IMG/VR virus record: IMGVR_UViG_3300044961_000262
Coordinates: 19,780 to 83,779 of that record
Direction: 5' to 3' (one strand)
Length of the DNA: 64,000 nt
Source: a virus
Shown: one piece after another, positions 1,281-17,405 of the stretch
Position numbering within the stretch: the first letter of the stretch is position 1
Layout: the number at the start of each line of letters is the position of its first letter
Notes under the pieces: generated by a model
Database searches by the model: none
Seen by the model: the letters and a program-made list of their open reading frames with translations, nothing else
What the model was told of the DNA's origin: nothing
Program-made: the position numbers and the translations under genes

Positions 1281-1551
1281 AATATTTATATTTGTGAATT
1301 GTCAACCAATCACATCTTTAACAGAGTATTCATATGAACTACTTGATAGTTTTTTCTTTAAATTTTCTTTTATAGCTTTTGATTTTTTTTTTAATATTGT
1401 ATTTTTTTTTCAAAATGAATATCTTCACATTCACCTAAAATAGAACGACAATACGTAGGATCTTTACATTCCTTACATGGTATTTTCATAAAAATCTTCT
1501 TCTATTTCAATTACACTTTCGTGTTTAATAAAATGAAGAGCTTCTTCTATC

Positions 1552-2079
1552 TCATTCTGAGATAGAGGAAGTTCCATTAATGGTTTTTTCAGTTTCAATT
1601 GAAGACTCACTAAACTTATGTTGTAATTCAGATTGTTGTCTAACGAATTCTCTTTCGATTTCATCCGATAATTTTTTATGTTCTTTATCTGTATCATTAA
1701 GATCTAAATGCTGTAGGAAAGAGTGCATAATCGTAGTATGATCTCTATTTCCTAAATATCTTCCTATTTCTGAATATGAAATTTTAGGTATATGTTTTTT
1801 TGATAAAAAACAAAATATATGTCTATATTCTGAGATTTCTCTAGATACCCTAGCGTTAAGTCTTAAAGTAGATACAGGAACATTTGTTTTTTCGGAAACT
1901 ATTTTAATTAAAAGTTCTAAATCCGGATTTTCGTGCCTTTCTTCAAGTTTAACTTTTTTTTCTAATCTAACTTTTTCAAGTTTATTTACTTTAGATTTTA
2001 AAACTCGAATTGTTGTTTCAAGTTTTTTAATTTGACTTTCATATTCTTTCTGAGATAGTTTTCTTTTTTTCAATGTCAT
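1552..2079 (-). CDS. protein with DnaA C-terminal (domain IV) HTH and N-terminal coiled coil
   Basis: SYSEIGRYLGNRDHTTIMHS matches the DnaA signature IGxxFGxRDHTTVxHA; no AAA+ domain. Confidence 0.8.
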   Translation of the reverse strand: MTLKKRKLSQKEYESQIKKLETTIRVLKSKVNKLEKVRLEKKVKLEERHENPDLELLIKIVSEKTNVPVSTLRLNARVSREISEYRHIFCFLSKKHIPKISYSEIGRYLGNRDHTTIMHSFLQHLDLNDTDKEHKKLSDEIEREFVRQQSELQHKFSESSIETEKTINGTSSISE

Positions 2080-3334: not shown

Positions 3335-3336
3335 TT

Positions 3337-3774
3337 TTATTTAACTAAAAGTTTTTCAATTTTAGCCATTGTTAAAGCTTTCTGATCTTCAACTGATAAG
3401 AATCCACGAACTTCAGAAATTAAAGCTTCAAGTTCTTTTTTACGAGTTTCATGAGTAATGATTTTAATTCTTAAACTGATATCTTCTTTCCAATCGTTTT
3501 TAGATCCTCCGCTTAATACAAAAGCAGGTACTTCATCAAGACCTAATTCATTAGTTGCATCAAAATAAGCTTTTTCTCTTACTATTACTGAAGCATAAGC
3601 TTTAACTAAAGAACTTAAATCCGTCATAATTTTAATATCACCAACACCCTCTAATATACCAGATGTTCTATAATTCGATTCAGTTACTTCCTTAATACTT
3701 TTAAGTTCATTTTCTAATAAAACTATTAATGAAGGAACATCGTTTGTTTTTGCAATTTGTTTATTGTTTACCAT
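3337..3774 (-). CDS. hypothetical protein
   Basis: 145-aa ORF in a tightly packed operon. Confidence 0.7.
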   Translation of the reverse strand: MVNNKQIAKTNDVPSLIVLLENELKSIKEVTESNYRTSGILEGVGDIKIMTDLSSLVKAYASVIVREKAYFDATNELGLDEVPAFVLSGGSKNDWKEDISLRIKIITHETRKKELEALISEVRGFLSVEDQKALTMAKIEKLLVK

Positions 3775-3971
3775 ATTGTTTGTTTTTTTAATTTTTCTAT
3801 TTCGGTTTTTAAATTTTCTATTTTTTCTTCATAATCTGATACTTCACATTTTAAATCATTTACTTTTTTTGTAAGGTTATATATTTCATCAGATTTATTA
3901 GAATTTTCATATTCTAAAGTTTCTACATAATTTTGTAAATTAGTTATTAATTTATCAAATTCTTTACTCAT
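3768..3971 (-). CDS. small coiled-coil protein
   Basis: 67-aa heptad-rich ORF overlapping or abutting its neighbours. Confidence 0.6.
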   Translation of the reverse strand: MSKEFDKLITNLQNYVETLEYENSNKSDEIYNLTKKVNDLKCEVSDYEEKIENLKTEIEKLKKQTIW

Positions 3972-3973
3972 AA

Positions 3974-4261
3974 TTAATAAATTGGAAATGAATTAACTAT
4001 TACATCTTTCGGCATATTTTCAATTAATATATTATTTATAGGATCTTTCAAATGCCAATTTACTTCTTCTGGAATAGCCTGTCGCCAATCAGATTGATTA
4101 GCTTTACTTGTACCTCCTACTTCACTATAATATAAAGTATCGGAGCTATATTTACGTATTTTATAAATTTTTCCTATTGTTCTATTTGTAGATCCTTTTA
4201 AACCTATACATACAGCGTATCCGGGATATTCTATTCTTCCCCATATTAATTGTTTTTCCAT
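3974..4261 (-). CDS. hypothetical protein
   Basis: 95-aa ORF with 2-nt gaps to neighbours. Confidence 0.65.
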   Translation of the reverse strand: MEKQLIWGRIEYPGYAVCIGLKGSTNRTIGKIYKIRKYSSDTLYYSEVGGTSKANQSDWRQAIPEEVNWHLKDPINNILIENMPKDVIVNSFPIY

Positions 4262-4263
4262 AA

Positions 4264-4746
4264 TTATTTCCAGTTAATTTTAGGACAGTAATTTTTATAC
4301 CAAGATTTACAATAATTTACAATTATATTATTAGATATTTTATCTTCTAAAGTATATTTTACATTTTTTTTAATCCATATTTCTCTAATAATTAAAATAC
4401 ATATTATAATTGATATTATTCCTCCTAATGTAGCAAGAGTTGAATTGTAATTATCGAAATTCAATGCCCATAAAATATAATGATATATTCCTATAATATA
4501 AAATATAATTATAGTTACAATTGTATATATTATTATACCTATACCAGTTCTTCCATCTCCTTTATGAAAACCGTCTTTAGTAATCATATTTACAATACTT
4601 ACAGGTAATCTTAAAATAAGATTAGGAATGAATAATATTATTGCCGTTACTAATTTCCAAAAAAAAGGGCATAAGTTTTCAGGTAATTTTGAATTGTATG
4701 TATAGTTATATAACCATACATACCATGATTTCGTTTTTAATTCCAT
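4264..4746 (-). CDS. membrane protein
   Basis: Three hydrophobic segments; LPxNLCPFFW and CPKINW motifs. Confidence 0.7.
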   Translation of the reverse strand: MELKTKSWYVWLYNYTYNSKLPENLCPFFWKLVTAIILFIPNLILRLPVSIVNMITKDGFHKGDGRTGIGIIIYTIVTIIIFYIIGIYHYILWALNFDNYNSTLATLGGIISIIICILIIREIWIKKNVKYTLEDKISNNIIVNYCKSWYKNYCPKINWK

Positions 4747-4755
4747 GTTTATTTT

Positions 4756-5208
4756 TTATTTAATTAAGTTTTCTAAGCAATAGATTATTGCTGCTTCTTT
4801 AGCTTCTTCTGGTGTGTCAAAGTTATACCCAACATCTATAATGTCTGATGGGTTATTAGGGTTAAGTTTACAAATATTATAATTATATCTTATTGTATCT
4901 TTTTCATAATTCCATTTAATTATTTTTGATGTAATATAAATATCAAAATTTACAAATACCCAGTCAATAGCTAATTGTTGTGTCGGTGCTAAAAACACAT
5001 TTTTACGGTTTAACGCAACATATTCTCCAATAACGTACAGTTTATTTTTTACATTTTTTATTAGATAATTTCTACCATGTTCATCAATACCAAATACTTT
5101 ACTATTTGGTTTCATGTAAAAGAAAGAACAGTAAGCATCAAATCCTTTTCCTTTTAACAGCTTAGCTGCTTCAAAAGATACTAATTTTTCTTCTATATTA
5201 TTATTCAT
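4756..5208 (-). CDS. hypothetical phage protein
   Basis: Likely start MNNNIEEK at 5208 (avoids overlap with the upstream gene); contains VSFEAAKLLKxKGF...APTQ...W...PEEAKEAAI. Confidence 0.65.
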   Translation of the reverse strand: MNNNIEEKLVSFEAAKLLKGKGFDAYCSFFYMKPNSKVFGIDEHGRNYLIKNVKNKLYVIGEYVALNRKNVFLAPTQQLAIDWVFVNFDIYITSKIIKWNYEKDTIRYNYNICKLNPNNPSDIIDVGYNFDTPEEAKEAAIIYCLENLIK

Positions 5209-5228
5209 AATTTTAATCTTAATTGATA

Positions 5229-5480
5229 TTATAAAGTATTTAAAATAAACCATTCAAGCCATATTTTAACCTTATATGTTTTTCCAAAACCACCTTTTAA
5301 TTCTAAAATTTTAGAATATTCTATATTTGGATTTTCAGTATTAACGTTATTTATTACTTTATAATCTCCGTAATATTTTTTAATAATTTCTTCAGCATTT
5401 TCAATTGAATCAGCAACACCTATTATGATATGTTCATCATCATCAAAGTCTTTCTCATGTATTACTATTACTTTTTTCAT
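5229..5480 (-). CDS. hypothetical protein
   Basis: 83-aa ORF in the operon. Confidence 0.6.
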   Translation of the reverse strand: MKKVIVIHEKDFDDDEHIIIGVADSIENAEEIIKKYYGDYKVINNVNTENPNIEYSKILELKGGFGKTYKVKIWLEWFILNTL

Positions 5481-5502
5481 TTTTTATACCTTATTAATAT
5501 TT

Positions 5503-5778
5503 TCATTTTATAATTCTTTTAATCGGTATAAAATATGCACTATCACCTGTTTTATCTTCACTACCTAATGCAAGAATAGCTTCTTCATGAAACCAATCTT
5601 CTTCCATATATTCTTGTGATTCAGGCCATTGTATTAAACAATATCCATTTTCAGTATGATCTAATATATCATTTATAATTTTTACTTTTTCATTATTTTC
5701 ATTATTTTCAGGATTTAATATATCAGATGTTGATTCTCTTATAAATCTTATTGCTGCTTCAAATTTTGTTTTTATCAT
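5503..5778 (-). CDS. hypothetical protein
   Basis: 91-aa ORF containing WPESQEYMEEDWF. Confidence 0.65.
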   Translation of the reverse strand: MIKTKFEAAIRFIRESTSDILNPENNENNEKVKIINDILDHTENGYCLIQWPESQEYMEEDWFHEEAILALGSEDKTGDSAYFIPIKRIIK

Positions 5779-5816
5779 AAATGTTTATTTATTATTAATA
5801 TTATTTAGTAATAATT

Positions 5817-6590
5817 TTAAATTTTAATTTCAATTACTTCTCCTTCTGAAGTTAATGTTGTTTTGATTATTAAACAGTTAGGATAAAAGCAATTATTGTT
5901 TAATGAACAACTTGAACCTTCTTCTTTGATACCATTTTTAGTACATTCCATCTGCAAATTAATTACGTCAGGTAGTTTAGGTTGGTTTTTCAGTTTTTCA
6001 GTTAATTCTTCAAAAGTTATTGAATTACCTGATGTTTTCCAATATTCTTGACCGCCTTTCCATATTATTTTAGCTTCTTCTTCTGTATATTTCTTATCAG
6101 AAGATTTAGCTTGGTTGTAAAGCATTGTTGCTAATTTTGTTCTACCATAAAAACAATTGTCACAACCGCAATCTAATTTTGAAAATTCACCATAAGAAGC
6201 TATTTCTTCTTTGTCATACCCAAATTCTTCTGATAAAGTTTCTTTTATTCCATCAGGATTTCTTAAATCATAATAACAAAGGTTAGTTAAAATTTCTTTT
6301 TCAACACTCTGTTCTACAAATTTGATTATAGGTATTGATTTATCAATCAATTTTCCGATTGATGCTATAATTTTAATAGCTCCAAAATTATTCTTTTTAA
6401 GAGGATTATATATCTGAACTGCTTTATTTCCAATAGGGTCAAAAACCCAATTCAGATGTTGTAATTTAGCTTTTGTATCAACAACTACCCAATAATCATC
6501 TACTTTAATAGGTTTTAAATTATCTGATATTTTGCCATTTACAGATACCGCTGCAAATATGTGTTCATTTGGTATTTCTATTACTTTCAT
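5817..6590 (-). CDS. modular hypothetical protein with Cys clusters
   Basis: 257 aa; CGCDNCFYGR and CSLNNNCFYPNC Cys clusters. Confidence 0.65.
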   Translation of the reverse strand: MKVIEIPNEHIFAAVSVNGKISDNLKPIKVDDYWVVVDTKAKLQHLNWVFDPIGNKAVQIYNPLKKNNFGAIKIIASIGKLIDKSIPIIKFVEQSVEKEILTNLCYYDLRNPDGIKETLSEEFGYDKEEIASYGEFSKLDCGCDNCFYGRTKLATMLYNQAKSSDKKYTEEEAKIIWKGGQEYWKTSGNSITFEELTEKLKNQPKLPDVINLQMECTKNGIKEEGSSCSLNNNCFYPNCLIIKTTLTSEGEVIEIKI

Positions 6591-6800
6591 AGTTTTATTT
6601 TAAAGTTTATTTTAAAGAATTTAAATACTCGTACATTTCTTTTGTTTGGGCAAATTTGCAATTTGTAATTAGAAAATATACATCATCATAGCTTGGGTTT
6701 AATGATTTGTAATAATCTAACATATCCCGTGTCTGTGCTTTTGGATAATTTACTATTAATCAGCGTAAATTATTTTTTACGTCTATTGTTATGTGAAATT

Positions 6801-7112
6801 TCAGAACCACCCACAAGAAATCAATTCTACAATAGTTTTTTCACTATTAACGGTATCATATCGCAATATTTTCCATTTTTTTCCTAATGGTTTAGGTAAT
6901 GGGAATTTTAATGTTTTCCAATCTGCACTATTATTACTATTTGCAATGAAATTATTACAAACAGTAACATCACAATTATAAAAATTTTTTGGTATCTCTA
7001 TCTTAATTATTTTGCTTGGCTTCCTAAAGAAACTTCGCACAACATTGGTTTGTGGCAAGTGCGGCTGACGTGGTTTAACCAGATTTAGTAATTCTAATAA
7101 TCTTCTGTACAT
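6801..7112 (-). CDS. hypothetical protein inside attC-like cassette 1
   Basis: Starts in the loop of the 7037-7170 inverted repeat, reads through its left arm (PHLPQTNVVRS), stops next to GTTATGT at 6788. Confidence 0.6.
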   Translation of the reverse strand: MYRRLLELLNLVKPRQPHLPQTNVVRSFFRKPSKIIKIEIPKNFYNCDVTVCNNFIANSNNSADWKTLKFPLPKPLGKKWKILRYDTVNSEKTIVELISCGWF

Positions 7113-7170
7113 ATTTTCAAAATTTGTGTTTCAAAATCTGCACCTGACCACAAGTTAAGTGCCGTTAGTG
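7037..7170 (+). repeat. attC-like recombination site
   Basis: GCACAAC (R'') ... TTGTGGCAAGTGCGG / CTGCACCTGACCACAA imperfect inverted arms ... GTTAGTG (R'). Confidence 0.6.
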
Positions 7171-7171
7171 A

Positions 7172-7453
7172 TCATTTCTTTTTACGTTCTAACCATTCTA
7201 TAAAATATTTCATCGCTGCCCATCCTTCTGCATCGTAATGAAAAGGTGTGTTCCAATCAGACATTTCTTCATCTCTGTATTGTTCTAACAAAGATTTAAT
7301 TTCCGCAAGCAACGAACCGCTAACAGGTTGTTGGCGTAATGTTACTTCCATCTGTCCAATTAAGGTTAGTAAATCATCGTGCTGCCTACCTCTTGCAGTT
7401 TTTACTTGCCCAGTTGCTACCCATTTTCTAAGTATTTCCAAATGTTCTTTCAT
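7172..7453 (-). CDS. hypothetical protein inside attC-like cassette 2
   Basis: Starts in the loop of site 7318-7509, reads through its left arm (TLRQQPVSGS), stop 1 nt from GTTAGTG. Confidence 0.6.
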   Translation of the reverse strand: MKEHLEILRKWVATGQVKTARGRQHDDLLTLIGQMEVTLRQQPVSGSLLAEIKSLLEQYRDEEMSDWNTPFHYDAEGWAAMKYFIEWLERKKK

Positions 7454-7509
7454 TCTATTGTAATTTATCGTTAATAATTCACACTACTCCAACCACCAAC
7501 ACATTAGGT
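7318..7509 (+). repeat. attC-like recombination site (R' degenerate)
   Basis: CGCTAAC ... TTGGCGTAATGT / ACACTACTCCAA (10 of 12 complementary) ... ATTAGGT. Confidence 0.55.
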
Positions 7510-7527
7510 GTAAGTGCTATGACACTG

Positions 7528-7749
7528 CTACCAAGCATCATCTGTAATTCTAACATTTAATTTTATTTTACCATCAGACCATCCAATATCGTGATTTTCT
7601 TTTTTAACCTCACATCTTTGAGTATCTATTGGGTAAGGGTATGCACGTTGCATAAGTTCATTTTTTGGAACTTCTTTTTCCACTTCAATTTCAAAAATAA
7701 AATCATCAGGAATAGATGAAATTAAATCTTTTAATTCTTTGATTGTCAT
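7528..7749 (-). CDS. hypothetical protein in cassette 3
   Basis: MTIKELKDLISSIPDD-type small protein between R' at 7503 and R'' CACTAAC at 7774. Confidence 0.65.
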   Translation of the reverse strand: MTIKELKDLISSIPDDFIFEIEVEKEVPKNELMQRAYPYPIDTQRCEVKKENHDIGWSDGKIKLNVRITDDAW

Positions 7750-7773
7750 TTTCGTTTAATTTACCGCACCAGC

Positions 7774-7800
7774 CACTAACAGCGGTTTGGTGCTATTATT
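7774..7800 (+). repeat. left half of an attC-like site (no right arm found)
   Basis: CACTAACAGCGGTTTGGTGCTATT, similar in style to the left arms at 7037 and 7318. Confidence 0.4.
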
Positions 7801-7949
7801 TTACCTAACTTTCTTCTTGCGGATAAGAACTAATATCGGCAAAAATTCTTTTACCATCAGTGCTTACTCTTAATCTTTCTTCGCTTGGAATATGTATTTC
7901 CATTTTCTTATTTATTTAAGTTGTTAAAAATTCATTTAAAAAGGGCGGC

Positions 7950-8044
7950 GTATAACGGTGGCTAAAATAAATTGTAGCATTTGTTTTTAGATTGAAGTTT
8001 TAGATCTCCAAAACCCTAACTTCTTTAGCCGTAAAAAATTAGCG
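7950..8044 (+). repeat. attC-like recombination site (R' degenerate)
   Basis: GTATAAC GGTGGCTAAAATAA ... TTCTTTAGCCG ... ATTAGCG. Confidence 0.5.
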
Positions 8045-8050
8045 ACAAAG

Positions 8051-8315
8051 CTATACAACCTTCCAACTATCAATTCTAACTAAATATTTCCTTTATATAA
8101 ATTTTCCATAAATCTTCAATTCCACCATCATTATCTCTACCTCTTTCAACACGTCTATCCATAAAATACATTTTACCTTTATATAACCTCACATTAGATT
8201 GAATTGAAGATGTATTCTTCGTAATCTATATAATGAAATTAACTGTATCATTATTAACATCAGATATATTCAAGTTTTCTTGGTTTTCTTTGAAACTTTT
8301 TATTTTATTTTTCAT
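8051..8315 (-). pseudogene. decayed cassette ORF
   Basis: MKNKIKSFKENQENLNISDVNNDTVNFII*ITKNTSS...LWKIYIK, then a frame change to KYLVRIDSWKVV* ending 6 nt from ATTAGCG. LNISDV is the antisense read of an R''-like TATTAAC at 8252. Confidence 0.4.
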
Positions 8316-8338
8316 TTTTAATTTTATTTACTAATAAT

Positions 8339-8370
8339 AAAAAAAAGAAGTATCCGAAGATACTTCTTTT
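8339..8370 (-). terminator. intrinsic terminator downstream of tmRNA
   Basis: GAAGTATC-TTCG-GATACTTC followed by T8 on the minus strand. Confidence 0.8.
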
Positions 8371-8412
8371 CCACCTTTTAATCTAATCAAGCATATGACA
8401 AAATTTGATTTG

Positions 8413-8790
8413 TGGAGATGTGGGGAATTGAACCCCAGTCCAGATAACTGCTATATAACAACTTTTATTACATGCTTAAATCTAATATTTCTATTTGATT
8501 AGTATTAAGCTTAACTGAAATTAAGCTTCACCAGTTAATCTTTAATATTATTATACTCCTAATAGATTAACAAACTTGGGAGTGAAAATTAAGCAGCTAA
8601 AACTACTTCTTTTTCTGCAACAGGAGCAAAAGCAATTACCATTGCTTCTACTTTATCAGCAAAAGTCCTAGACTCGTCTGATATATTGTTATTGTTTGCA
8701 TTTGTTTTTTGATAGTAATTTAGATGTAATCTATCATCCATCGCATGATTGTTATAAGGCTAAACGTTACTGTCAAATCCTGTCATCCCC
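8413..8790 (-). ncRNA. ssrA: tmRNA (378 nt), tag ORF 8699-8589: ANNNNISDESRTFADKVEAMVIAFAPVAEKEVVLAA*
   Basis: 5' GGGGATGACAGGATTTGACAG; 3' T arm GGGGTTCAATTCCCC plus CATCTCC-A; acceptor stem has the G3:U alanine wobble; GCA resume codon and LAA C-terminus. Confidence 0.93.
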
Positions 8791-8797
8791 TAAATAG

Positions 8798-9064
8798 CTA
8801 ATCTTTATCAGCTATTTCTAATTTCTGCAAAGCTAATTTTTTTTCTTCAATTCTTTGTTTTAAAACTTCATCAAATTGTTCTACAAAATTTGTAAATTTT
8901 TCATACAAATAGTAGTGCATTTCGTTTTTTTTTAAACAAATTTTACGAAATTTAATTAACTCGTCATCTGTTAATTCCGATATTGGTTTTAACGAACCGT
9001 CTTTCATTTTCCAAATGAGTTCTTTTTCATCTGTTTTGAGCATTATTTTGTTAACTGGTGTCAT
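8798..9064 (-). CDS. hypothetical protein
   Basis: 88 aa; WKMKDGxxxxIxELxD motif shared with 14621..14896. Confidence 0.65.
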   Translation of the reverse strand: MTPVNKIMLKTDEKELIWKMKDGSLKPISELTDDELIKFRKICLKKNEMHYYLYEKFTNFVEQFDEVLKQRIEEKKLALQKLEIADKD

Positions 9065-9088
9065 ATGTTTATTTATTAAAAAATGAAT

Positions 9089-9118
9089 AAAAAGAAGAGT
9101 CTTTCGACTCTTCTCTTT
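9089..9118 (-). terminator. intrinsic terminator
   Basis: GAAGAGTC-GAAA-GACTCTTC followed by a T run on the minus strand. Confidence 0.75.
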
Positions 9119-9133
9119 AAATTAAACTAAAAA

Positions 9134-9604
9134 TTAAAATACAGGAGCTTCTTCTACTTGAGATACTACAGTTGTATTTACTGGTTCTACAACTTCGTGT
9201 CCACGTGATTTAAATGCAGATTTAACTGTAGATTCCCAAGCTGGAGAAGCTGTATCTCCGAACACAACCGTAGTATAAGTATTTACAGCGCGAATTCCGC
9301 CATCTTTAGATTCGATGTCGTACTCTCTTACATTACGATTTTCAATTTTACCTTCAAAATAACCTCCCGCTTGAGGATTTCTTTCATTGAAAATAGGTGC
9401 TGAATAACCTGGATCTGGTTGACCAAGATAATTTAGTTCATACTGATTTACAGATGTTGAACGGCATTGGCTCAATGGTTTAGGCATTGGTCCAAATTGA
9501 GTGTTTAACATAGTACGTTCAGTAAATGTAACTGTTTTGTAGTTACGTCCGTTTTTGTCTTGTTTGATAGCTGATTCAGCTGTTTTTACGATAATGTGAT
9601 TCAT
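9134..9604 (-). CDS. hypothetical protein, possibly ssDNA-binding
   Basis: Beta-rich, own terminator, acidic/aromatic tail VEEAPVF reminiscent of SSB C-termini. Function is inference. Confidence 0.45.
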   Translation of the reverse strand: MNHIIVKTAESAIKQDKNGRNYKTVTFTERTMLNTQFGPMPKPLSQCRSTSVNQYELNYLGQPDPGYSAPIFNERNPQAGGYFEGKIENRNVREYDIESKDGGIRAVNTYTTVVFGDTASPAWESTVKSAFKSRGHEVVEPVNTTVVSQVEEAPVF

Positions 9605-9697
9605 TTTGTTTTAAATTATTTAAAGCGATACTAAAATGCGTAATCTTGTCGTTGAAACGCTTCACGCCCACATAGGTTATACTGATTGGGTCCAGTT

Positions 9698-9748
9698 AAA
9701 AAAGAAAAAGTTACAGTAAAACTTGGCAAATGCTGTAACTTTTCTTTT
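9698..9748 (-). terminator. intrinsic terminator (possibly bidirectional)
   Basis: AAAAGTTACAG...CTGTAACTTTT stem flanked by A/T tracts. Confidence 0.65.
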
Positions 9749-9768
9749 AAAAATAATACAAAGAACGA

Positions 9769-10086
9769 TTAGAATAATTCTGCTTGAAGAGCTATTAGAT
9801 TGTTATAATCTACTTCTGCATTTTCCAAATTGTATTTTGCTGCCAAAATAACTGAAGAATTAAAATTTAAATCAGATTTAGCACGGTCTAATACTGCTTT
9901 AGCTAAACTTACAGCTTTTTTAGCTTGAAGAATATCGTGTTGAATTTGAATACGAGCTTCTTCTACTTTTTCAAGAACTAATTCTTGATTTTTAGTTTCG
10001 TTAGATTTTGAAAGAAGTGATTGATACAAACACGTTTTTGTTGATTCAGTTTCTTCAGAAACTACTGTTTTTTTTGAAGTTGTCAT
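9769..10086 (-). CDS. helical hypothetical protein
   Basis: 105-aa ORF ending ELF. Confidence 0.7.
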   Translation of the reverse strand: MTTSKKTVVSEETESTKTCLYQSLLSKSNETKNQELVLEKVEEARIQIQHDILQAKKAVSLAKAVLDRAKSDLNFNSSVILAAKYNLENAEVDYNNLIALQAELF

Positions 10087-10289
10087 TGTTTTGATTTAAC
10101 TTTAATTACTTGATAACCCGGTACTGTTCTTTTAAATCCACTTCGTACCGGTTCAAAAGTAGATCTTGTTGTTTGGTGAGAGATTGTTTTTTTTTGAATA
10201 ATTTTTTCCTTATTATCTTTTTTAAAATTAAGTGTTATCGGAACTTTTTTCATTGCATCTTTGATGTCTTTTGCTATTTGCGATTTCAT
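10083..10289 (-). CDS. small basic protein
   Basis: 68 aa; ATGA overlap with the next gene. Confidence 0.6.
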   Translation of the reverse strand: MKSQIAKDIKDAMKKVPITLNFKKDNKEKIIQKKTISHQTTRSTFEPVRSGFKRTVPGYQVIKVKSKQ

Positions 10290-10551
10290 TTTGATATAAT
10301 AATAAAAATGTAATAAATAAAATAAAAAATAATAACGATACTATCCATGCTATAATTTCTTTTAAATTTATATTAATATACACTAATAATAGTGCTATTA
10401 TAAAAAATATTATAGAAATAGATAAATAAAATAATTTTACCATTAAAATATTATATTTATTGCAAATGGACCAATGAAAATAAATAAAGTGTTTTCATCA
10501 AGATCAATAGCTGCTCCTAAAACAAACATTGCTGCAATGTCTATTTTAACT

Positions 10552-10845
10552 TTAGGAATTAGATTTTTTTTGTTCATTTTGATTAAGAGTTACATGTTGT
10601 GGTTTAAATGCAGATAAATCTTCTATTTTTTTAGAAAGTTCTGTCATTTGTCCTGATTTAAGTGAAATAAAGTAAACATTTTTAGATTTGAAAAGTAGAT
10701 AACCGTATTCTATTAATTTATTAATTAAAACTTTAGATTCTTTACTGAAATTTTCAATATTTACGGTATTTCCGTAATTCATTTTAAGAAATTCAGCTGC
10801 GGATTTCATACTAGTCATTTTACAAAAAGATTCTTCGTTTATCAT
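10552..10845 (-). CDS. hypothetical protein
   Basis: 97 aa; ATGA overlap. Confidence 0.6.
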   Translation of the reverse strand: MINEESFCKMTSMKSAAEFLKMNYGNTVNIENFSKESKVLINKLIEYGYLLFKSKNVYFISLKSGQMTELSKKIEDLSAFKPQHVTLNQNEQKKSNS

Positions 10846-11108
10846 AATGGTCTATGAATTATTTCTTTATTTATTAATTCTCCAGTATGCTTATCAATAC
10901 ATGTAATATATTGAATGTAGAATTTGTACCCGTTACTTCTAGACTTTTTAATTCTAGTTTTAACGTGTGTAAATTTAGGATTAGAATTTTTTTCTTTCTT
11001 AGGTTTAACTATAGGTTTTTGTTCAACGTCTTCTATAACGCTAAGAGTTACTTTATAATCTCCATTTTGATTTTTTTTGGTAAGTAATCTATGAATTGTT
11101 TTTAACAT
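10842..11108 (-). CDS. basic hypothetical protein
   Basis: 88-aa ORF. Confidence 0.6.
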   Translation of the reverse strand: MLKTIHRLLTKKNQNGDYKVTLSVIEDVEQKPIVKPKKEKNSNPKFTHVKTRIKKSRSNGYKFYIQYITCIDKHTGELINKEIIHRPL

Positions 11109-11234
11109 AATTATGATATTAATAAAATTTCGATAATATTTTTTTTTTGACGATCTAATTTTCTAATAACTGAAATTACAATATTGCATTTATCATCATT
11201 TGATAAAGTATTTTTATTCTATCTAACTGTATTT

Positions 11235-11615
11235 TCATTTATATGTAACTAAAATTGTCCAACATTTAAATTCTTTAGAGTATTGTAAAAACAGTTTTCT
11301 TTCTTCATGTTCGTAAATATTTTTAGATACATATTTCCATCTAGTTTCTTCAATAATAGAAATTGCTTCATTTTCAGTTATATCTAAAGTAAATAAAATA
11401 CCTATACAATAATTTTGTTTACTCATATAATAAACATGAAGTACGGAGTTTTTAAATGTAGTTAAACACTTAGTTCCATCATCTAATTTAATTACTTCTA
11501 CAGAATATCCGTTAGATTCTAGTTCTTTCCTAACTTCACTTGCGCTCATACCTAAGTCTTGAGCATTTAACAATCCTCCAAAGAGAATTGATACGATTAA
11601 TAATAATTTTTTCAT
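11235..11615 (-). CDS. secreted/periplasmic protein
   Basis: Signal peptide MKKLLLIVSILFGGLLNA|Q; Gln at +1 is typical of Bacteroidota. Confidence 0.7.
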   Translation of the reverse strand: MKKLLLIVSILFGGLLNAQDLGMSASEVRKELESNGYSVEVIKLDDGTKCLTTFKNSVLHVYYMSKQNYCIGILFTLDITENEAISIIEETRWKYVSKNIYEHEERKLFLQYSKEFKCWTILVTYK

Positions 11616-11975
11616 GATTTAATTTTTTAATTCTTGTAAAACAGCTACAATAACCAATGCCAATATTGCTAATACCGAAAATGATACTAATAATATTTCT
11701 TTAATTTTTCTTTTCATTTTTTATTTAAAGATTAATAATTTAAAAATAATAAACTTGACCCATCTATTGTGAGAAAATTGTCGAAACATTTTTCAGGGAA
11801 GCAGTAACAATATTTCTTAAAATCCTATTTGTTTTAAAAAAGTATTATTAGCTGTTACAATAACTATACTCTTAATTATTTTGTAAGTAAAGCTTTGATA
11901 ATGTAATTTTGCAATTTTGCAAAAATTAATAAACTCACCGGTTGTCATTTTTACATTTTCCATGTTTTTAATTGA

Positions 11976-12161
11976 TTAAAGGTAATAAATTTGATTTCTT
12001 TTTTTCTTTTTTTTAGTTTTAATTAATACTACACTAATTATAGCTATTAAAGCAGTTAGATAACAAACTGATGATACGATTATTTCTGTTTTTAAAAAAA
12101 GTGGAACGAATCCAAAAAATAATCCGCAGATTAAAATTAGTAGTTTTTCTTTTCTAGTCAT
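11976..12161 (-). CDS. small two-TM membrane protein
   Basis: Two hydrophobic helices and a basic tail. Confidence 0.55.
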   Translation of the reverse strand: MTRKEKLLILICGLFFGFVPLFLKTEIIVSSVCYLTALIAIISVVLIKTKKKKKRNQIYYL

Positions 12162-12205
12162 ATTATTGTTGATTAAAATTAGGTTTTAGATTTCTTTATT
12201 TTTAA

Positions 12206-12232
12206 TAAAAAGCAAGAGGTAGTTCTCTTGCT
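12206..12232 (-). terminator. intrinsic terminator ending the structured tract
   Basis: AGCAAGAG-6-CTCTTGCT followed by TTTT on the minus strand. Confidence 0.65.
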
Positions 12233-12236
12233 AGTT

Positions 12237-12705
12237 TGTAAATACTTTACATATTGTAATAGTATTTACATTTTTTAACACAAACACCATCAACATTTGC
12301 AACTGTTGATATATAAATTTATTCTCCACTTACCTTTAAAAGTTTCGTAGTTTCTAAAACTATTTTATATTCGTATTTGTGTTGTAGTAAGTAAATAGCT
12401 GACAGTGCAGTTCATTTAAACCAATTTGTCCTATTAATAAGGATGGTCACTTTTACTTACCAAAACCTAAAATCTACTTAGGTAAGGATAAAATTGTGTT
12501 GTCAAGTCATTAATTAAAAGGATATACCAAGCATCATACTTAACTTGCTATTTGATACGTCAGCCGTTTAATTACTAATTCCTTTCGGAACAACACAATT
12601 TTAAATTGTTAGGTAAACTGTTTGTAGTCACGAATACTACCAGCTCAAGTATGTAGGGTTGAATACCTACTATGCCCAGTTAATTTTTTTCATCCTAACA
12701 ATTTA
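12237..12705 (-). ncRNA. candidate structured ncRNA tract A (consecutive closed domains)
   Basis: No ORF; closing stems 12237-46/12261-70, 12277-84/12376-83, 12387-95/12452-60, 12490-501/12591-602, 12602-13/12694-705; internal TTCC-GAAA-GGAA GNRA loop on minus. Confidence 0.55.
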
Positions 12706-12729
12706 TTACAACTCCTTAATTGTAATTTT

Positions 12730-13002
12730 TTATTCAATTTCACTAGCTTTTTCAACAGCCAATTCTAATTCATCTACTGTTTCTTTAAACCATTTTGAAT
12801 ATTTTAAAATTTCTTTAAAATAATCATCATCTTTTAAAGATTTAATTTTTGTAATAGTACTTGCATAATCTATAGCGGGTATTTTTTGACCTATTTGTAT
12901 TTCTTTAGGTTTATTTCCCGTTACTGCATTAACTATTTCTTTAATTTCATTTTCGGTAGCTTTAATTAAAAAGCCTTCATTTGTTTTTGCTATTACTTCC
13001 AT
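12730..13002 (-). CDS. hypothetical protein
   Basis: 90-aa ORF. Confidence 0.7.
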   Translation of the reverse strand: MEVIAKTNEGFLIKATENEIKEIVNAVTGNKPKEIQIGQKIPAIDYASTITKIKSLKDDDYFKEILKYSKWFKETVDELELAVEKASEIE

Positions 13003-13010
13003 AATTTTAA

Positions 13011-13505
13011 TTAGTTTTTAAATATTTCTTTAATTTTTTTATTACTCACTGAATTAGACAAAGGTAACACATTTTTATCCGGTTTAATTTCTATCCATTG
13101 AGATTTTTCTAATCTGCTAAATTCAGATAAACAATATCTTACAGCAGCTTCATTTATATCCCATTCAGGAAATACTTCATCTTTTTTTGGATTTATCCAA
13201 CCATTTTGATTAGTATAATATCCATATTTCCAACAATTGTGTGGTTTGATTGCTTCAAAAAAATCAGTAATAGTTCTTGCGTTACCTGTTAATGGTATTC
13301 TACTCATTTGACTAACTAATAAATAAGCTATTCTGTTTTTCTTTTGTTCTAAAGAATCACTTTCTAAACAACCTAAATAACCATCAGCTTGAATAAGTAT
13401 TTCTAAATCATCCCAAATAGTTTTTCTTTTAGTAGATTTAGGATTGTATTTTTTATACCATCCTTTACTGTAAAGCACAATGTGTTGTAATGTGAATTTT
13501 TCCAT
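13011..13505 (-). CDS. hypothetical protein
   Basis: 164-aa ORF (YSKGWY...LIQADGY). Confidence 0.7.
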   Translation of the reverse strand: MEKFTLQHIVLYSKGWYKKYNPKSTKRKTIWDDLEILIQADGYLGCLESDSLEQKKNRIAYLLVSQMSRIPLTGNARTITDFFEAIKPHNCWKYGYYTNQNGWINPKKDEVFPEWDINEAAVRYCLSEFSRLEKSQWIEIKPDKNVLPLSNSVSNKKIKEIFKN

Positions 13506-13510
13506 AATTA

Positions 13511-14248
13511 TTATTTTAAATTATTTTCGATCCATTCTTTTGGTATATTAACACTGTTATAATAACCATCTCTACCATAATATAAAGTGTCTTTTTCATA
13601 TTGATAAATTAATTCAATAACTTCATCTCTACTCCAACTCTCTTTTACACTTGAAATATTAATAGTGTTATCTGGATTTATTTTTAATCTTATATCAATA
13701 GTAGATTCACCATCAGATAATCCATAATTACCAACTGCATATTCTTCATATTCAACCATTACATCAGTAATAATATTACCTTTGTTATATTCATAAATAT
13801 AATAGGCAATAAATAATTGTGGTATTTGAGGTAACTTAAACAATTTTGGTAGTTTTATATTTTCTGATTTACTACCAAACATATTTGTATCAAAACTATC
13901 AATACCATAAATTGAATTCGTAGTTAAAGAACTATCAGTTGTAGCTATTACTTTTTTGCAAAAATCTTTTTGTGTTGCTAAACCATTTAAAGAATCCGCT
14001 AACCAAATATCATCACCTGTAACATCATTATCATAAGAAGATTTTACTTGCATTATATTATCTTCATTATATAATACCCAATCTCCTTCTTTAATTTCAT
14101 CATCAGATAAAATGTAAAGATGTTGATTAGTCCATGTATTACTTGGTGAATTTTGATTTTGTAATCCTCCTATTTCAAAACTTGTGTCCAAACAAATATT
14201 ACTTGATTTATCAGTAGGTAACATAATTATTTTACAGTGTTTTTTCAT
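13511..14248 (-). CDS. hypothetical phage protein
   Basis: 245 aa; IIMLPT...QHLYILSDDEIKEGDW...KKVIATTD...LKINPDNTI. Confidence 0.7.
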   Translation of the reverse strand: MKKHCKIIMLPTDKSSNICLDTSFEIGGLQNQNSPSNTWTNQHLYILSDDEIKEGDWVLYNEDNIMQVKSSYDNDVTGDDIWLADSLNGLATQKDFCKKVIATTDSSLTTNSIYGIDSFDTNMFGSKSENIKLPKLFKLPQIPQLFIAYYIYEYNKGNIITDVMVEYEEYAVGNYGLSDGESTIDIRLKINPDNTINISSVKESWSRDEVIELIYQYEKDTLYYGRDGYYNSVNIPKEWIENNLK

Positions 14249-14279
14249 AATTGTTTTTTTTTTGAGTTAATTAGTAAAT

Positions 14280-14344
14280 TTTACCCATCTGCATTTATAG
14301 AGGCTTTGGACTCTCAATGATTAATCATTGGCTGCATTAATAAA
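14280..14344 (-). ncRNA. twister ribozyme, type P1
   Basis: TTTAT-TAA-TGCA-GC-CAATGA(TTAA)TCATTG-AGAG(TCCAAAGC)CTCT-ATAAA-TGCA-GATGG-GTAAA. P1-P4, both pseudoknots (GC/GC, CCA/TGG) and the conserved UAA, AAGC and GA are present. Predicted cut U^A at 14339/14338. Confidence 0.9.
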
Positions 14345-14347
14345 TCA

Positions 14348-14618
14348 GTAAACAATGGCGCAATCTTCGTCAAGACCGCTTATTTTCATTGTTTACCTAC
14401 CTGTTTGTAGATGGTTCTGCCATCGCAACATTAACTTTCATTAAGGAGCTACCTTAATTACTCGAAGGTCTTCTTCAAGTTTACTCGTAGAGCTGTTTTC
14501 CTTGCGCTAGGTTTTACAGATACTTGGATTACATGAAAATGCCATGTAGCAGGAACAATTAAATCCATACCCTATTCCTACTTTAAGGTATTTAAGACGG
14601 TTTAACTCACCGACAGCT
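14348..14618 (-). ncRNA. candidate structured ncRNA tract B
   Basis: Three exactly abutting closed domains 14348-14396, 14397-14490 and 14491-14618 with internal hairpins; no ORF; GC-richer than flanks. Confidence 0.55.
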
Positions 14619-14620
14619 TT

Positions 14621-14896
14621 TTAATAAATATCTATTTCACAAGCATCAAATCCACAACAATATTCTCCTAAATGCTCTTCACCACAATTAGGACAAGTTT
14701 GTGAATTATTAAAATCTTGTGCAATATCACCTTTCAGTTTAAATTTAGTTACAGACTTACTATTATTCTGTTGTAACTTTTGGATATTGCGTAATAGCAT
14801 CTTAAAAGCATTTCTAACATGGTTATTATCCATATCATCAACATTTATAAGATTGCCATTACGCATTTTCCAATAGACAGGCGAATTATCCTTCAT
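14621..14896 (-). CDS. hypothetical protein with C-terminal Cys cluster
   Basis: WKMRNG motif; CPNC...H...CC...C. Confidence 0.65.
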   Translation of the reverse strand: MKDNSPVYWKMRNGNLINVDDMDNNHVRNAFKMLLRNIQKLQQNNSKSVTKFKLKGDIAQDFNNSQTCPNCGEEHLGEYCCGFDACEIDIY

Positions 14897-15179
14897 AAGA
14901 TTGATTTTTTAATGAATTTAATTTAGATTCGTTTTTTAAATCAAGATATTTCTGATATTTAAGACAATCTAATTCATCAGTTAGTTCTGAAATTGCATAA
15001 TTCCATTCTAAACGATATTGATAATTATCTGAAACATCTTCAATATCTTCTAAAGATAATCTATTTTTACTTTTTAAATCTTTCAGTTCTTGCAATTCTT
15101 TTTCAACCTGTCTAATTCTTTCTTCTATATCAGAAGGAAAATAAGGTTGCATTTCATCGAAATACTTAGGCTTTTTCAT
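14886..15179 (-). CDS. coiled-coil hypothetical protein
   Basis: 97-aa ORF overlapping the next gene. Confidence 0.65.
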   Translation of the reverse strand: MKKPKYFDEMQPYFPSDIEERIRQVEKELQELKDLKSKNRLSLEDIEDVSDNYQYRLEWNYAISELTDELDCLKYQKYLDLKNESKLNSLKNQSYEG

Positions 15180-15254
15180 TTTGTTTATTATTTAAGTTTT
15201 ACAACTAACTCTCAGCATAGTTGAACTCTGAATTTGAATAGTTTATTCTATTTT

Positions 15255-15310
15255 TCTGTTTCGATGCTCAATTACATCATCATCAGTATGAACAATAGTC
15301 CATAGACAGA
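15255..15310 (-). ncRNA. hammerhead ribozyme, type III
   Basis: TCTG-TC^-TATGGAC(TATT)GTTCATA-CTGATGA-T-GATG(TAATTGAG)CATC-GAAA-CAGA. Complete core, three stems, GUC cleavage triplet (cut 15305/15304), one extra U after A9. Confidence 0.9.
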
Positions 15311-15314
15311 TATT

Positions 15315-15358
15315 ATAAAAATAACTCTCAACCATTAGGCTTTATGATTGAGAGTTAT
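15315..15358 (-). terminator. terminator-like hairpin just 5' of the hammerhead
   Basis: ATAACTCTCAATCAT...ATGGTTGAGAGTTAT followed by TTTT. Confidence 0.6.
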
Positions 15359-15498
15359 AGTTGCGAGTTCTCGCTGCAATTTACTGAGTTTACATGATCG
15401 TAGTTTTAAATTAACAAAATAAAGAAACAGTGTATCTATAAAGGTAGAGGTTAATTACTCCTTTTTTGGTTCACCTTGTGGATTTTTACCACAGTAGC

Positions 15499-15894
15499 CT
15501 ACACTATTTCTTTAACAATAGGAGCAACATTCATATACCTAATTTTAGGTCTACGATTGTTATTCCTTGCTACAGCTTCAATTTCCTTATTACTAAGGTT
15601 ATTATCGCCATAGCTTCTTTCTAATTCATACTGATATACATCTTCAAGATAGCCTTTTTCTTGTTGATTCATATAGTTAATGAATTTTTCAGCATCAGAA
15701 TCACGAATTAGATATAGAAATTTATTTTCTCCATCTTCTTCGTAAACTGTTCTTCCTTCATTTAATCCCCAAAATGAACACATAATATATGGAGGTTCAT
15801 CATTAGGAAATGTATGTTTGTGGATAATAGTATATCCTTTTACTTTTTGTCCAACATACGGAAATAACAAAAAGAGTTCTCTTGATTTGTTCAT
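15499..15894 (-). CDS. hypothetical protein
   Basis: 131-aa ORF. Confidence 0.7.
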   Translation of the reverse strand: MNKSRELFLLFPYVGQKVKGYTIIHKHTFPNDEPPYIMCSFWGLNEGRTVYEEDGENKFLYLIRDSDAEKFINYMNQQEKGYLEDVYQYELERSYGDNNLSNKEIEAVARNNNRRPKIRYMNVAPIVKEIV

Positions 15895-16102
15895 TTTAAT
15901 ATTTTTTTTGAGTTTGAGCTACCATTTATTTTAATTCTTTGGGAACATTAAGAATTTGTTTAAGTGTAAAAACAAAAAACCTTACTAAGTACGAAACTTT
16001 TCAGGTTTTATGACAAATCCGCGTGATTTGTTCAGACACGCTCATAATCAACAAGTTACATTGTTGAATTTAAAGTTTTACTTTAATTTTTATATTAAAC
16101 CA

Positions 16103-16198
16103 GTTAGCAAGTTTAGCAAATTTAGCAATATTAGTAAGTACGAATAGTTAGCAACATTATCTGAAGACAATGTGCTAACTATGCTAACAATGCTAAAC
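16103..16198. repeat. TTAGCAA short-repeat cluster (direct and inverted)
   Basis: TTAGCAA x3 plus TTAGTAA at 9-nt period, a further TTAGCAA at 16148, then three inverted TGCTAA copies. Confidence 0.7.
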
Positions 16199-16210
16199 AA
16201 CCTATTGTCC

Positions 16211-16549
16211 TTACATTTGGACAATAAGTTGTGTGCCGAATACAGAAGCGGCTTTCGCAAATTCAGTTGCTGAACCTGCACCGTCAAACGATTTGAATTC
16301 CATAGATTGTTTCAAACGTGTAACAGTTTCGCCTTTAAGAAACAACGGTTTACCGTCTTTTAACGTTTTAGAGTCGTTTTGGGCTATAAATTTGTCGCCA
16401 ACTTCGTTGATAACGATAGACACGATACGTGCTCCATTATTTGAAGTGTCGCCATTAGCCCAAACGGTTCCGTTAGGTGTTTCGATAGCGGTTTTGCCCA
16501 ATTTTTCGATAAAACGTTGGGCAATAATTGGTTGATTTTCAAATTTCAT
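16211..16549 (-). CDS. first gene of the leftward arm, hypothetical
   Basis: Likely start MKFENQ at 16549; locally GC-richer codon usage. Confidence 0.65.
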   Translation of the reverse strand: MKFENQPIIAQRFIEKLGKTAIETPNGTVWANGDTSNNGARIVSIVINEVGDKFIAQNDSKTLKDGKPLFLKGETVTRLKQSMEFKSFDGAGSATEFAKAASVFGTQLIVQM

Positions 16550-16838
16550 AATGATAGAATTAAAAGGTTGAAGAATAAGATACGGGTAACATCCCCGCAA
16601 AATTGGAGAGGGGGATCTTTGTATGACCTAGAACACATTCACATATTTTTCTCAAAAAAAAAATTCCAAAAAAAAATTTTTAAAAAATAAGCATGTTCAA
16701 AACGCAAACATCTAACTCTCTGATAATCATTCAGAAACGTAACGAAAATTTGCTATATATATTCTCTATAATTTGACAAGATTTCTCTCTGAATATCAAC
16801 AACTTAACACTTTCCTTTTTGAACATTGTTCATTTTAT

Positions 16839-16858
16839 TAAATTTGTTCATATATTTG
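16839..16858 (+). promoter_or_regulatory. tandem Bacteroidota-type -7 elements (TAnnTTTG)
   Basis: TAAATTTG at 16839 (TTTG -33 element 17 nt upstream) and TATATTTG at 16851, before ATG at 16875. Confidence 0.65.
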
Positions 16859-16874
16859 AACCGCAATAAAACAA

Positions 16875-17405
16875 ATGAGTAAACAAGTACCAGATTCCAT
16901 TAAACAAGCTAAATCTCCTTTTATTCAGGAGCTTAAAATACCTGTATTTAATAAACAGGTATCTGAAGATTTAGCCGTTATGGATAGATTAAGTGTTGAA
17001 AATGATGTAGTTATCTCTTTAGGAGCAACTCATACTATCAAAAGAGGATACGTTATTGAAAAGGATAGAAAAGTAAATCTTTATTATGAAAATGATGGTG
17101 AAGATCTTAGACCCGCATATTCTTCTTTATCTAAAGAAGGTAGAATGTTATTAGAGTATATACTATTATATTGTCTTAGGGAAAATAAATTGTACTGTTA
17201 CATTGATTTTAAAGACTTTATGGAAAAGTATAATGTGTTTTCTAGAACTACGGTGTGGTCATCTAAAAAAAATCTTATAGATCATATATTTATTGCTCCA
17301 ACTTCTCATAACGGATGGTATTGGATTAATCCTAAATATATGTTTAAAGGATATAGAACTAAGGTTTACGAATTACAAGATAACCTTAAAATTAAAGAAG
17401 TGTAA
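16875..17405 (+). CDS. RepL-like winged-helix protein
   Basis: SRTTVW...L...YWINPKYMFKG, the typical RepL C-terminal motif; such a gene is common in crAss-like phages. Confidence 0.7.
   Translation: MSKQVPDSIKQAKSPFIQELKIPVFNKQVSEDLAVMDRLSVENDVVISLGATHTIKRGYVIEKDRKVNLYYENDGEDLRPAYSSLSKEGRMLLEYILLYCLRENKLYCYIDFKDFMEKYNVFSRTTVWSSKKNLIDHIFIAPTSHNGWYWINPKYMFKGYRTKVYELQDNLKIKEV

Follow-up and report, generated by a model that had tools for sequence, protein, structure and literature searches.

A type III hammerhead and a type-P1 twister ribozyme flank two small genes behind terminator-like hairpins in a crAss-like phage genome

Self-cleaving ribozymes beside phage genes have been described before. 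In the available text of Perreault et al. 2011 (PMC3088659), flanking hammerheads are proposed to process long phage transcripts, and cleavage of hammerhead arrays is shown in vitro. The genomic association of twisters with hammerheads is also known already (PMC6765202, available part), and the same 2019 review calls the bacterial roles of self-cleaving ribozymes largely elusive. Here, a 64,000-nucleotide (nt) stretch of viral DNA, referred to below as the window, was analysed for a hammerhead and a twister that flank two small open reading frames (ORFs). The window comprises bases 19780-83779 of the IMG/VR record IMGVR_UViG_3300044961_000262, which has 83,779 bases and is judged 93% complete.

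A type III hammerhead with an extra U between A9 and G10.1 (15310..15255, cut C15305/U15304, after GUC) and a type-P1 twister (14343..14281, cut U14339/A14338) are present in the window. Their presence had been claimed in an initial annotation made from the sequence alone, and it was borne out by Rfam alignments, folding, covariation and a leave-out model. Both ribozymes are encoded on the minus strand, as are the ORFs, so that the claim that they are sense to the genes and enclose two small ORFs and a structured tract also held (ORF list; tract fold z-score (z) -3.34). The cut-to-cut span, 15304..14339, is 966 nt long and contains the ORFs 15179..14886 and 14896..14621 and the 277-nt tract B. 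The order on the minus strand is a 131-amino-acid (aa) ORF, a hairpin, the hammerhead, 97-aa and 91-aa ORFs, tract B with its hairpin, the twister and a 245-aa ORF. The leader is 75 nt long between the hammerhead and the 97-aa ORF and 32 nt long between the twister and the 245-aa ORF, the ATG of which, at 14248, lies 90 nt from the twister cut. The locus has the layout of a ribozyme-flanked phage cassette, with two ribozymes on the coding strand, in intergenic gaps, and few genes between them. With a probability of about 60%, we read it as a leftward polycistronic transcript punctuated by two constitutive self-cleaving ribozymes, each right behind a terminator-like hairpin.

The window encodes a terminase, a portal and a major head protein (PHROGs 6681, 6547 and 11589), and the terminase shares 32-34% identity with its counterparts in named crAss-like phages (Crassvirales). 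Genes left of about 16700 are on the minus strand, while the structural genes point rightwards. From position and gene layout, and from general knowledge of crAss-like phages (review PMC10136315, available part), the leftward genes are taken to be early genes. The DNA sequencing runs that contain the stretch are hot-spring and microbial-mat metagenomes, four of which may be the source itself. When DNA contigs from three runs were aligned to the stretch, no variants and no joints appeared, the uncovered parts being uninformative.

The twister-P1 model (RF03160) aligned over its full length (model 1-68 of 68) to 14343..14281 (-) with 60.3 bits and an expectation value (E) of 1.3e-12 in a search of a 2-kb region, and a whole-genome search gave the same alignment. 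The cut site, U14339/A14338, was placed by this alignment. Twisters cleave at a U-A step, and all but 5 nt of the window twister would remain on the downstream RNA. The nested helices P1, P2, P3 and P4 are arranged in type-P1 order with the UAA cleavage loop and the two pseudoknots. Two positions deviate from the consensus, one in the P4 loop (CCA for CCC) and one in the 3' strand (UGG for GGG), and they pair together in pseudoknot T1. The T1 letters are CCA/UGG in the window, CAC/GUG in the viral contig loci L308 and L206, and CCC/GGG in locus L265; those of pseudoknot T2 are GC/GC in the window and AC/GU in L308. The L308 twister was found independently by Rfam (36.9 bits) and the L206 twister by our model R1 (49.5 bits), and in each of them both pseudoknots carry compensatory changes.

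In an alignment of eight twister sequences (A4), 97.5% of the cells are paired and 14 of 21 pairs are changed on both sides, a level reached by none of 500 shuffles. The nested helices are 87.5-100% paired and the pseudoknot cells are all paired; since six of the eight rows were selected with the P2 and pseudoknot letters fixed, only L308 is informative for P2 and the pseudoknots. A pattern fixing the window variant, with the same P2 and core, retrieved 7 further twisters from otherwise unrelated viral contigs, every one between small ORFs. Long twisters (124-143 nt) that lack P3 and have a large P5 arm were also observed in L238 (9832-9974, 10217-10347 and 10741-10871, +) and L265 (565..442, -). 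These score only 17-20 bits with our own model and are not listed by Rfam at E<=0.1; their pseudoknots covary exactly (T1 CAC/GUG, CCA/UGG and CCC/GGG; T2 UC or CC with GG).

The hammerhead core is complete over 15310..15255, with C3 U4 G5 A6 N7 G8 A9, G12 A13 A14, the pair A15.1-U16.1 and H17. Three helices surround this core, stems I and II being closed by loops and stem III being open; one U is inserted after A9, where stem II would otherwise follow directly. The hammerhead body would stay with the downstream RNA. In a search restricted to 15235-15330 (96 nt), RF00008 (Hammerhead_3) aligned over model 1-54 of 54 to 15312..15253 (-) with 23.5 bits and with one inserted U following CUGAUGA. 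Because this match is weak by itself, four further tests of the hammerhead were run. The minimum-energy fold of 15312..15250 is a three-way junction with stems I, II and III of 7, 5 and 5 base pairs (bp) (z -2.07; 7 of 200 shuffles equal). When both strands of the window were scanned with a descriptor allowing 0-1 inserted base and stems of at least 4 bp, the hammerhead was the single site found; matches occurred in 2 of 200 dinucleotide shuffles. The model R2, built from 24 hammerheads of other phages with the window and the loci sharing its stems excluded, gave the window hammerhead 68.7 bits (E 6.5e-16), and this was its sole match in the window and the rest of the genome.

A pattern that fixed stem III, the core with the extra U and GAAAC matched at least 115 stretches of viral contigs. 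In these loci (1.04 Mb), 133 pattern matches at 122 distinct sites were counted, and all counts for this family are among the matches listed. At 81 of the 122 sites, corresponding to 55 distinct sequences, a stem I of 5 bp or more together with a stem II of 3 bp or more forms only with the T after CTGATGA left unpaired; with that T paired, no site forms them. A sub-family of 25 sites in 23 loci shares loop II of the window (AAUUGA) and its loop I with the closing pairs. In its 16 close members, 99.3% of the cells are paired, and both partners vary in 10 of 17 pairs, 9 of them among the 12 pairs of stems I and II; none of 500 shuffles equalled this. The conserved loops I and II look as would be expected of interacting loops, a contact between the two being required for hammerhead activity at cellular Mg2+. 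More extra-base hammerheads, outside the fixed pattern, are found elsewhere in the same loci, while a search of named phage records yielded no similar hammerhead (best blastn E-value 0.1).

The extra base after A9 is taken as tolerated since two described hammerhead groups carry one. In the (+) hammerhead of chrysanthemum chlorotic mottle viroid (CChMVd), changing the extra A10 to U raised trans-cleavage 3-4 fold (PMC3705267, available part), and Penelope-element hammerheads conserve a base between positions 9 and 10.1 (PMC4209133, available part). According to the available text of Perreault et al. 2011 (PMC3088659), their screening rule rejects mispairs at 10.1-11.1. This rule would probably have rejected the extra-U family, and such a rejection may explain the low Rfam score of the family; Dataset S1 and Figures S5-S7 of that study may nevertheless contain extra-U hammerheads already. 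In the literature searched, no assay of any member of the extra-U phage family was found.

Upstream of the hammerhead, a terminator scan and folding identified a terminator-like hairpin (15358..15321, -) with 15 pairs, a loop of 8 and a U-rich tail. It ends 10 nt ahead of hammerhead stem III and 16 nt ahead of the cut, and the fold of 15400..15300 has a z of -3.48 (equalled by 1 of 200 shuffles). Hairpins whose end is no more than 12 nt from the hammerhead were found at 38 of 69 distinct family sites among the matches listed versus 376 of 2000 random positions, by a script with a loop limit that missed the hairpin of the window itself. From the end of the last hairpin of tract B (14397..14347), it is 3 nt to twister P1 and 8 nt to the twister cut. 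A TATAAT at 15317..15312 was considered as a promoter of the module and rejected, the nearest -35-like hexamer being just 8 nt off; in the promoter scan, sites were no commoner than in shuffles (38 vs 37.7).

The position of the hammerhead recurs in relatives. In all 12 loci with a terminase homologue (among the matches listed), the terminase is encoded on the other strand and its start is 3.4-7.4 kb away from the hammerhead, compared with 5.5 kb in the window, and these terminases are 24-32% identical. The number of independent cases is below 12 because L213 and L280 look near-identical. L195 and L308 share with the window a 156-aa ORF about 5 kb downstream (56-61% identical). The arrangement recurs as well: L308 carries a hairpin, a type III hammerhead, a type II hammerhead-like element, a 168-aa ORF, a hairpin and a twister, with about 890 nt from the first hammerhead cut to the twister cut, and L265 carries a hairpin, a hammerhead, a 78-aa ORF, a hairpin and a twister. 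In L238, two hammerheads are followed by three twisters. The type II element of L308 (6062-6125, +), about 195 nt past the type III hammerhead, has stems I, II and III of 6, 3 and 9 bp and an extra U, and its CUGAUGAUGG core includes the ATG of the 168-aa ORF (6118-6624).

On the reading of a punctuated leftward transcript, both ribozymes would cut in vivo within one transcript running through both, the hammerhead 16 nt past hairpin 15358..15321 and the twister 8 nt past hairpin 14397..14347. Each upstream RNA would then end in a 3' hairpin and a short tail with a 2',3'-cyclic phosphate, resembling a terminated transcript, and each downstream RNA would start with a 5'-OH and a folded ribozyme. 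The outcome would be three RNAs, separately stabilised and translated, of which the middle one would be a linear 966-nt two-gene mRNA with a structured 3' untranslated region (UTR). The purpose would be mRNA insulation and 3'-end formation. The release of a defined 966-nt RNA, and a new 5'-OH end 90 nt before the downstream ATG, had been predicted in the initial annotation; the positions agree, and the release itself is conditional on both ribozymes cutting one transcript.

Several results weigh against this reading. Both ribozymes score below the Rfam gathering cut-offs, the twister with 60.3 vs 67.2 bits and the hammerhead with 23.5 vs 48.5 bits. Because the twister is under 67.2 bits, the gathering-level scan of the window lists a transfer-messenger RNA (tmRNA) alone; its shortfall of 7 bits is ascribed here to the covarying pseudoknot positions, which count as mismatches in a model without pseudoknots. 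The covariance search suggested as a check recovered the twister at full length, while at E<=10 it missed the hammerhead in the 2-kb region and, with RF00008, in the whole genome, the 23.5 bits being obtained only within 96 nt. The nested fold of the twister is no steadier than shuffles (z 0.03, 96/200), and its P1 is weak, with three A-U pairs and one G-U. The family pattern was taken from the window hammerhead and the members were picked by a stem-demanding descriptor, so the agreement in stem III and the core is built in and some of the pairing in stems I and II is a product of the selection; the covariation support for the family appears real but partly selected. If termination at hairpin 15358..15321 is efficient, few transcripts would reach the hammerhead, and no RNA run is among the sequencing runs listed for this DNA.

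Conservation of the pair, a further point to be checked, was found in part. The order recurs in L308 and L265, and no twister-P1 was found in any of the five whole records with a sub-family hammerhead (L281, L259, L260, L276 and L195), in two of which the hammerhead is identical to that of the window; the same search recovers the window twister as a control. In L206, the twister precedes the hammerhead by about 1 kb. Homologues of the flanking genes have neither ribozyme beside them, as judged from 80 loci with the 245-aa family and 80 with the 91-aa family. In 113 loci (784,793 bases, including the 80 with the 245-aa family), two weak descriptor matches were taken for chance, and the only twisters were those of the 7 loci retrieved with the twister pattern; a single weak type I-like match was obtained from the 80 loci of the 91-aa family, and an Rfam search of L001-L003 gave no ribozyme. 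From these comparisons, the pair is only partly shown to be a single functional bracket.

A tentative extension of the punctuated transcript is that hairpin and ribozyme form one composite signal in a crAss-like lineage and that the pair marks an exchangeable gene slot; we consider this possible but clearly less probable than punctuation as such. In a composite signal, the U-rich tail would either adjoin the 5' strand of the outer ribozyme helix (hammerhead stem III or twister P1) or serve as that strand itself. Termination, or read-through with cleavage 5-16 nt past the hairpin, would then give nearly equal upstream 3' ends, and the downstream mRNA with its 5'-OH would arise from read-through only. 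A gene slot of this kind would keep its frame while the cargo differs, as it does among the window, L308 and L265.

That one or both ribozymes are passengers, that is, sporadic small elements of little or no benefit or partly inactive copies, is unlikely. In favour of passengers are the 7 further twisters, which share P2 and core although their viral contigs are otherwise unrelated, the lack of ribozymes beside homologues of the flanking genes, and the unlike cargo of the window, L308 and L265. However, the place of the hammerhead is retained in phages with terminases just 24-32% identical, and compensatory changes are seen in all helices and in both twister pseudoknots, with the hammerhead loops conserved.

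The abutting hairpins (38 of 69 sites) and the location of the hammerhead near the start of a leftward operon in 12 of 12 relatives, both among the matches listed, would also suit a hammerhead at the 5' end of a primary transcript, where the hairpin would be a start signal for a virion RNA polymerase and the ribozyme would trim a triphosphate leader. For phage phi14:2, the available text of a preprint (bioRxiv 10.1101/2020.03.07.982082) describes early transcripts of the virion polymerase with 5' ends that lack a common upstream motif. Against this, the hairpins are followed by U runs as in intrinsic terminators, the twisters of the window, L308 and L265 have the same hairpin-plus-U layout inside operons directly after a gene, the 131-aa ORF ends 140 nt upstream of the window hairpin on the same strand, and no hammerhead or twister was found in the first 50 kb of phi14:2. 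We regard a start signal as improbable. The same preprint, as far as available, reports that long intergenic regions in the early region of phi14:2 (a Cellulophaga phage, locus L310) are transcribed more strongly than most genes; in two long ORF-free gaps of its early region (1279-1983 and 2905-4601), the scans found no hammerhead or twister.

Conditional cleavage, in which tract B or a competition between hairpin and ribozyme would respond to temperature, ions, a ligand or the polymerase and thereby tune the 245-aa operon, is likewise given only a small chance. Behind each hairpin, the U tail adjoins or overlaps the 5' strand of the ribozyme outer helix, tract B has an unusual degree of structure, the DNA comes from a hot-spring microbial mat, and regulated cleavage of phage hammerheads was raised by Perreault et al. 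2011 (PMC3088659, available part); yet tract B matched no riboswitch or known RNA family at E<=10 and has no relative for a conservation test, and both ribozymes have complete consensus cores.

A true bracket with a product that is circularised or specially stabilised by a host RtcB-type ligase, which the initial annotation had offered as speculation, is very improbable, and circularisation of the module has no support: both classes leave 5'-OH and 2',3'-cyclic phosphate ends that suit RtcB (PMC4787814, available part) and the hammerhead-genes-twister order is seen again in L308 and L265, but the module ends are unpaired, the classes are unlike, the phage lacks rtcB, and Perreault et al. 2011 (PMC3088659, available part) obtained no spliced or circular product when they looked for such RNAs from prophage genes flanked by hammerheads.

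The earlier remark that no stem joins the module ends was confirmed by folding and by a shuffle test. The minimum-energy fold has no pair between the first 60 nt and the last 150 nt, and the pairing of the first with the last 100 nt is no better than chance (229 of 300 shuffles as good or better). RtcB (PF01139) is absent from the phage genome (no match in its 1 record, with a control search positive in 10 of 14 genomes); this settles the phage part of the proposed search of phage and host for rtcB. Circular RNAs bounded by ribozymes have the same ribozyme at both ends, whereas the two ends here belong to different classes, and so no ribozyme would be rebuilt across the junction.

An ORF-free RNA of about 400 nt between two extra-U type III hammerheads was observed in related contigs, in L202 (4749..4231, -), L238 (9317-9823, +), L285 (12944..12436, -) and L291 (1709-2227, +), with partial copies in L260 (6511-6955) and L304 (8091-8430). 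It is conserved in crAss-like contigs, with apparent compensatory changes among the copies. With the same ribozyme class at either end, a hammerhead could be re-formed across the termini of the excised RNA, which is a point in favour of the circularisation reading; as a potential circular or stable non-coding RNA, the ~400-nt RNA is a stronger candidate than the module of the window.

Between the ribozymes, the first gene of the module is the 97-aa ORF (15179..14886, -; ORF list), which has no Pfam or PHROG match and no relative among the viral contigs searched. The 91-aa ORF (14896..14621, -) has 58 homologues (alignment A2) and belongs to a conserved, widespread family of small phage proteins, in which the N-terminal 65 residues are up to 83% identical and the tails are variable. 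Residues G14, M22, D23, N25, H26, N29 and K32 are invariant in the family, and the C-terminal part of the 91-aa ORF is cysteine-rich. Pfam, PHROGs and a protein atlas were uninformative on its function, the weak PHROG matches being of unknown function. Homologues of this ORF are located downstream of the same hammerhead type in L260 and L304. The first gene past the twister is the 245-aa ORF (14248..13511, -), which matches PHROG 15656 (function unknown, 3.8e-30) and has 706 homologues, the nearest of which (48% identical) is from an 84,990-nt contig. In L002, a contig related via the 245-aa protein, a transfer RNA (tRNA) match of 44.2 bits with a 56-nt insertion in the anticodon region was found at 5554-5672 (+).

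Tract B (14620..14344, -) is ORF-poor, with a G+C content of 0.38 compared with 0.28 for the window, and only 1 of 200 shuffles folds as well. It would act as the 3' UTR of the module. It matched no Rfam family at E<=10, no tRNA and no similar DNA in any locus compared. Low-depth short contigs from the same habitats match a part of it (14513-14618) with 7-10 differences per 56-106 nt, which suggests that an unassembled relative of the tract B region is present in the mats. A second ORF-free structured tract (12237-12705, -) closes the 245/164/90-aa gene block and precedes a terminator-like hairpin (12232..12211); it shows no similarity to tract B or to any locus compared.

Elsewhere in the genome, no ribozyme was found in the first 19.9 kb, and the remainder contains no second hammerhead of any topology and no second twister. 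The tmRNA of the phage lies at 8410-8790 (-) of the window (Rfam, 92.2 bits); L195 has a tmRNA at the same relative position (63.1 bits), and L281 has only weak tmRNA matches. At the DNA level, none of 50,697 named phage records matches the 2-kb region, and 25 loci with terminases 53-82% identical have no DNA in common with window positions 12000-17000.

The simplest reading is the one proposed in 2011, namely that ribozymes cut a long phage transcript into gene-length RNAs. What is added here is that both ribozyme classes are regularly placed directly behind terminator-like hairpins, that a sizeable extra-U family of phage hammerheads escapes the Rfam model, and that a crAss-like phage offers a compact natural test case. 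The placement raises the idea that ribozymes at terminator-like hairpins mimic termination for read-through transcripts, and the locus bears on the question of what clustered self-cleaving ribozymes are for in phages and bacteria. In the literature searched, no report of small ribozymes in crAss-like phages was found, the available part of PMC10136315 mentioning ribozymes only as introns, and nothing relevant was found on a terminator combined with a hammerhead in phages.

Compared with the type III hammerhead as described by RF00008, the window shares CUGAUGA, GAAA, the GUC site, the pairs G10.1-C11.1 and A15.1-U16.1 and an open stem III. In early mRNA of phage T7, RNase III cuts between genes and the terminal hairpin of the upstream product protects its 3' end. 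At the present locus, by comparison, the RNA itself would cut, leaving 5'-OH and cyclic-phosphate ends, and no host enzyme would be needed. The extra base is shared with the CChMVd (+) hammerhead (De la Pena and Flores 2001, via the available part of PMC3705267) and with Penelope hammerheads (PMC4209133, available part); unlike these, the window family is in phage DNA, has its own conserved loops I and II (AAUUGA) and scores far under the Rfam cut-off. With the type-P1 twister (RF03160; Roth et al. 2014, via the available part of PMC6765202), the window has P1-P4, the UAA loop and the pseudoknots in common, and differs in one pseudoknot pair that is A-U, not C-G. Viroid-like and retrozyme RNAs (PMC5680766, available part) are similar in size (600-1000 nt), in ribozyme cuts at both ends and in ends that can be joined by tRNA ligase or RtcB, but they have the same ribozyme at both ends, rebuilt in the monomer, whereas the window has two classes, no end pairing and a protein-coding cargo. 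The closest match is with the hammerhead clusters of prophages (PMC3088659, available part), which likewise have coding-strand ribozymes in gaps, few small variable genes and proposed gene-length mRNAs. The window is unlike them in having two ribozyme classes, a crAss-like phage as its carrier, the extra U and a terminator-like hairpin by each ribozyme. Ribozyme-flanked phage genes are thus an arrangement known since the 2011 proposal, and the present locus is not a new class of element.

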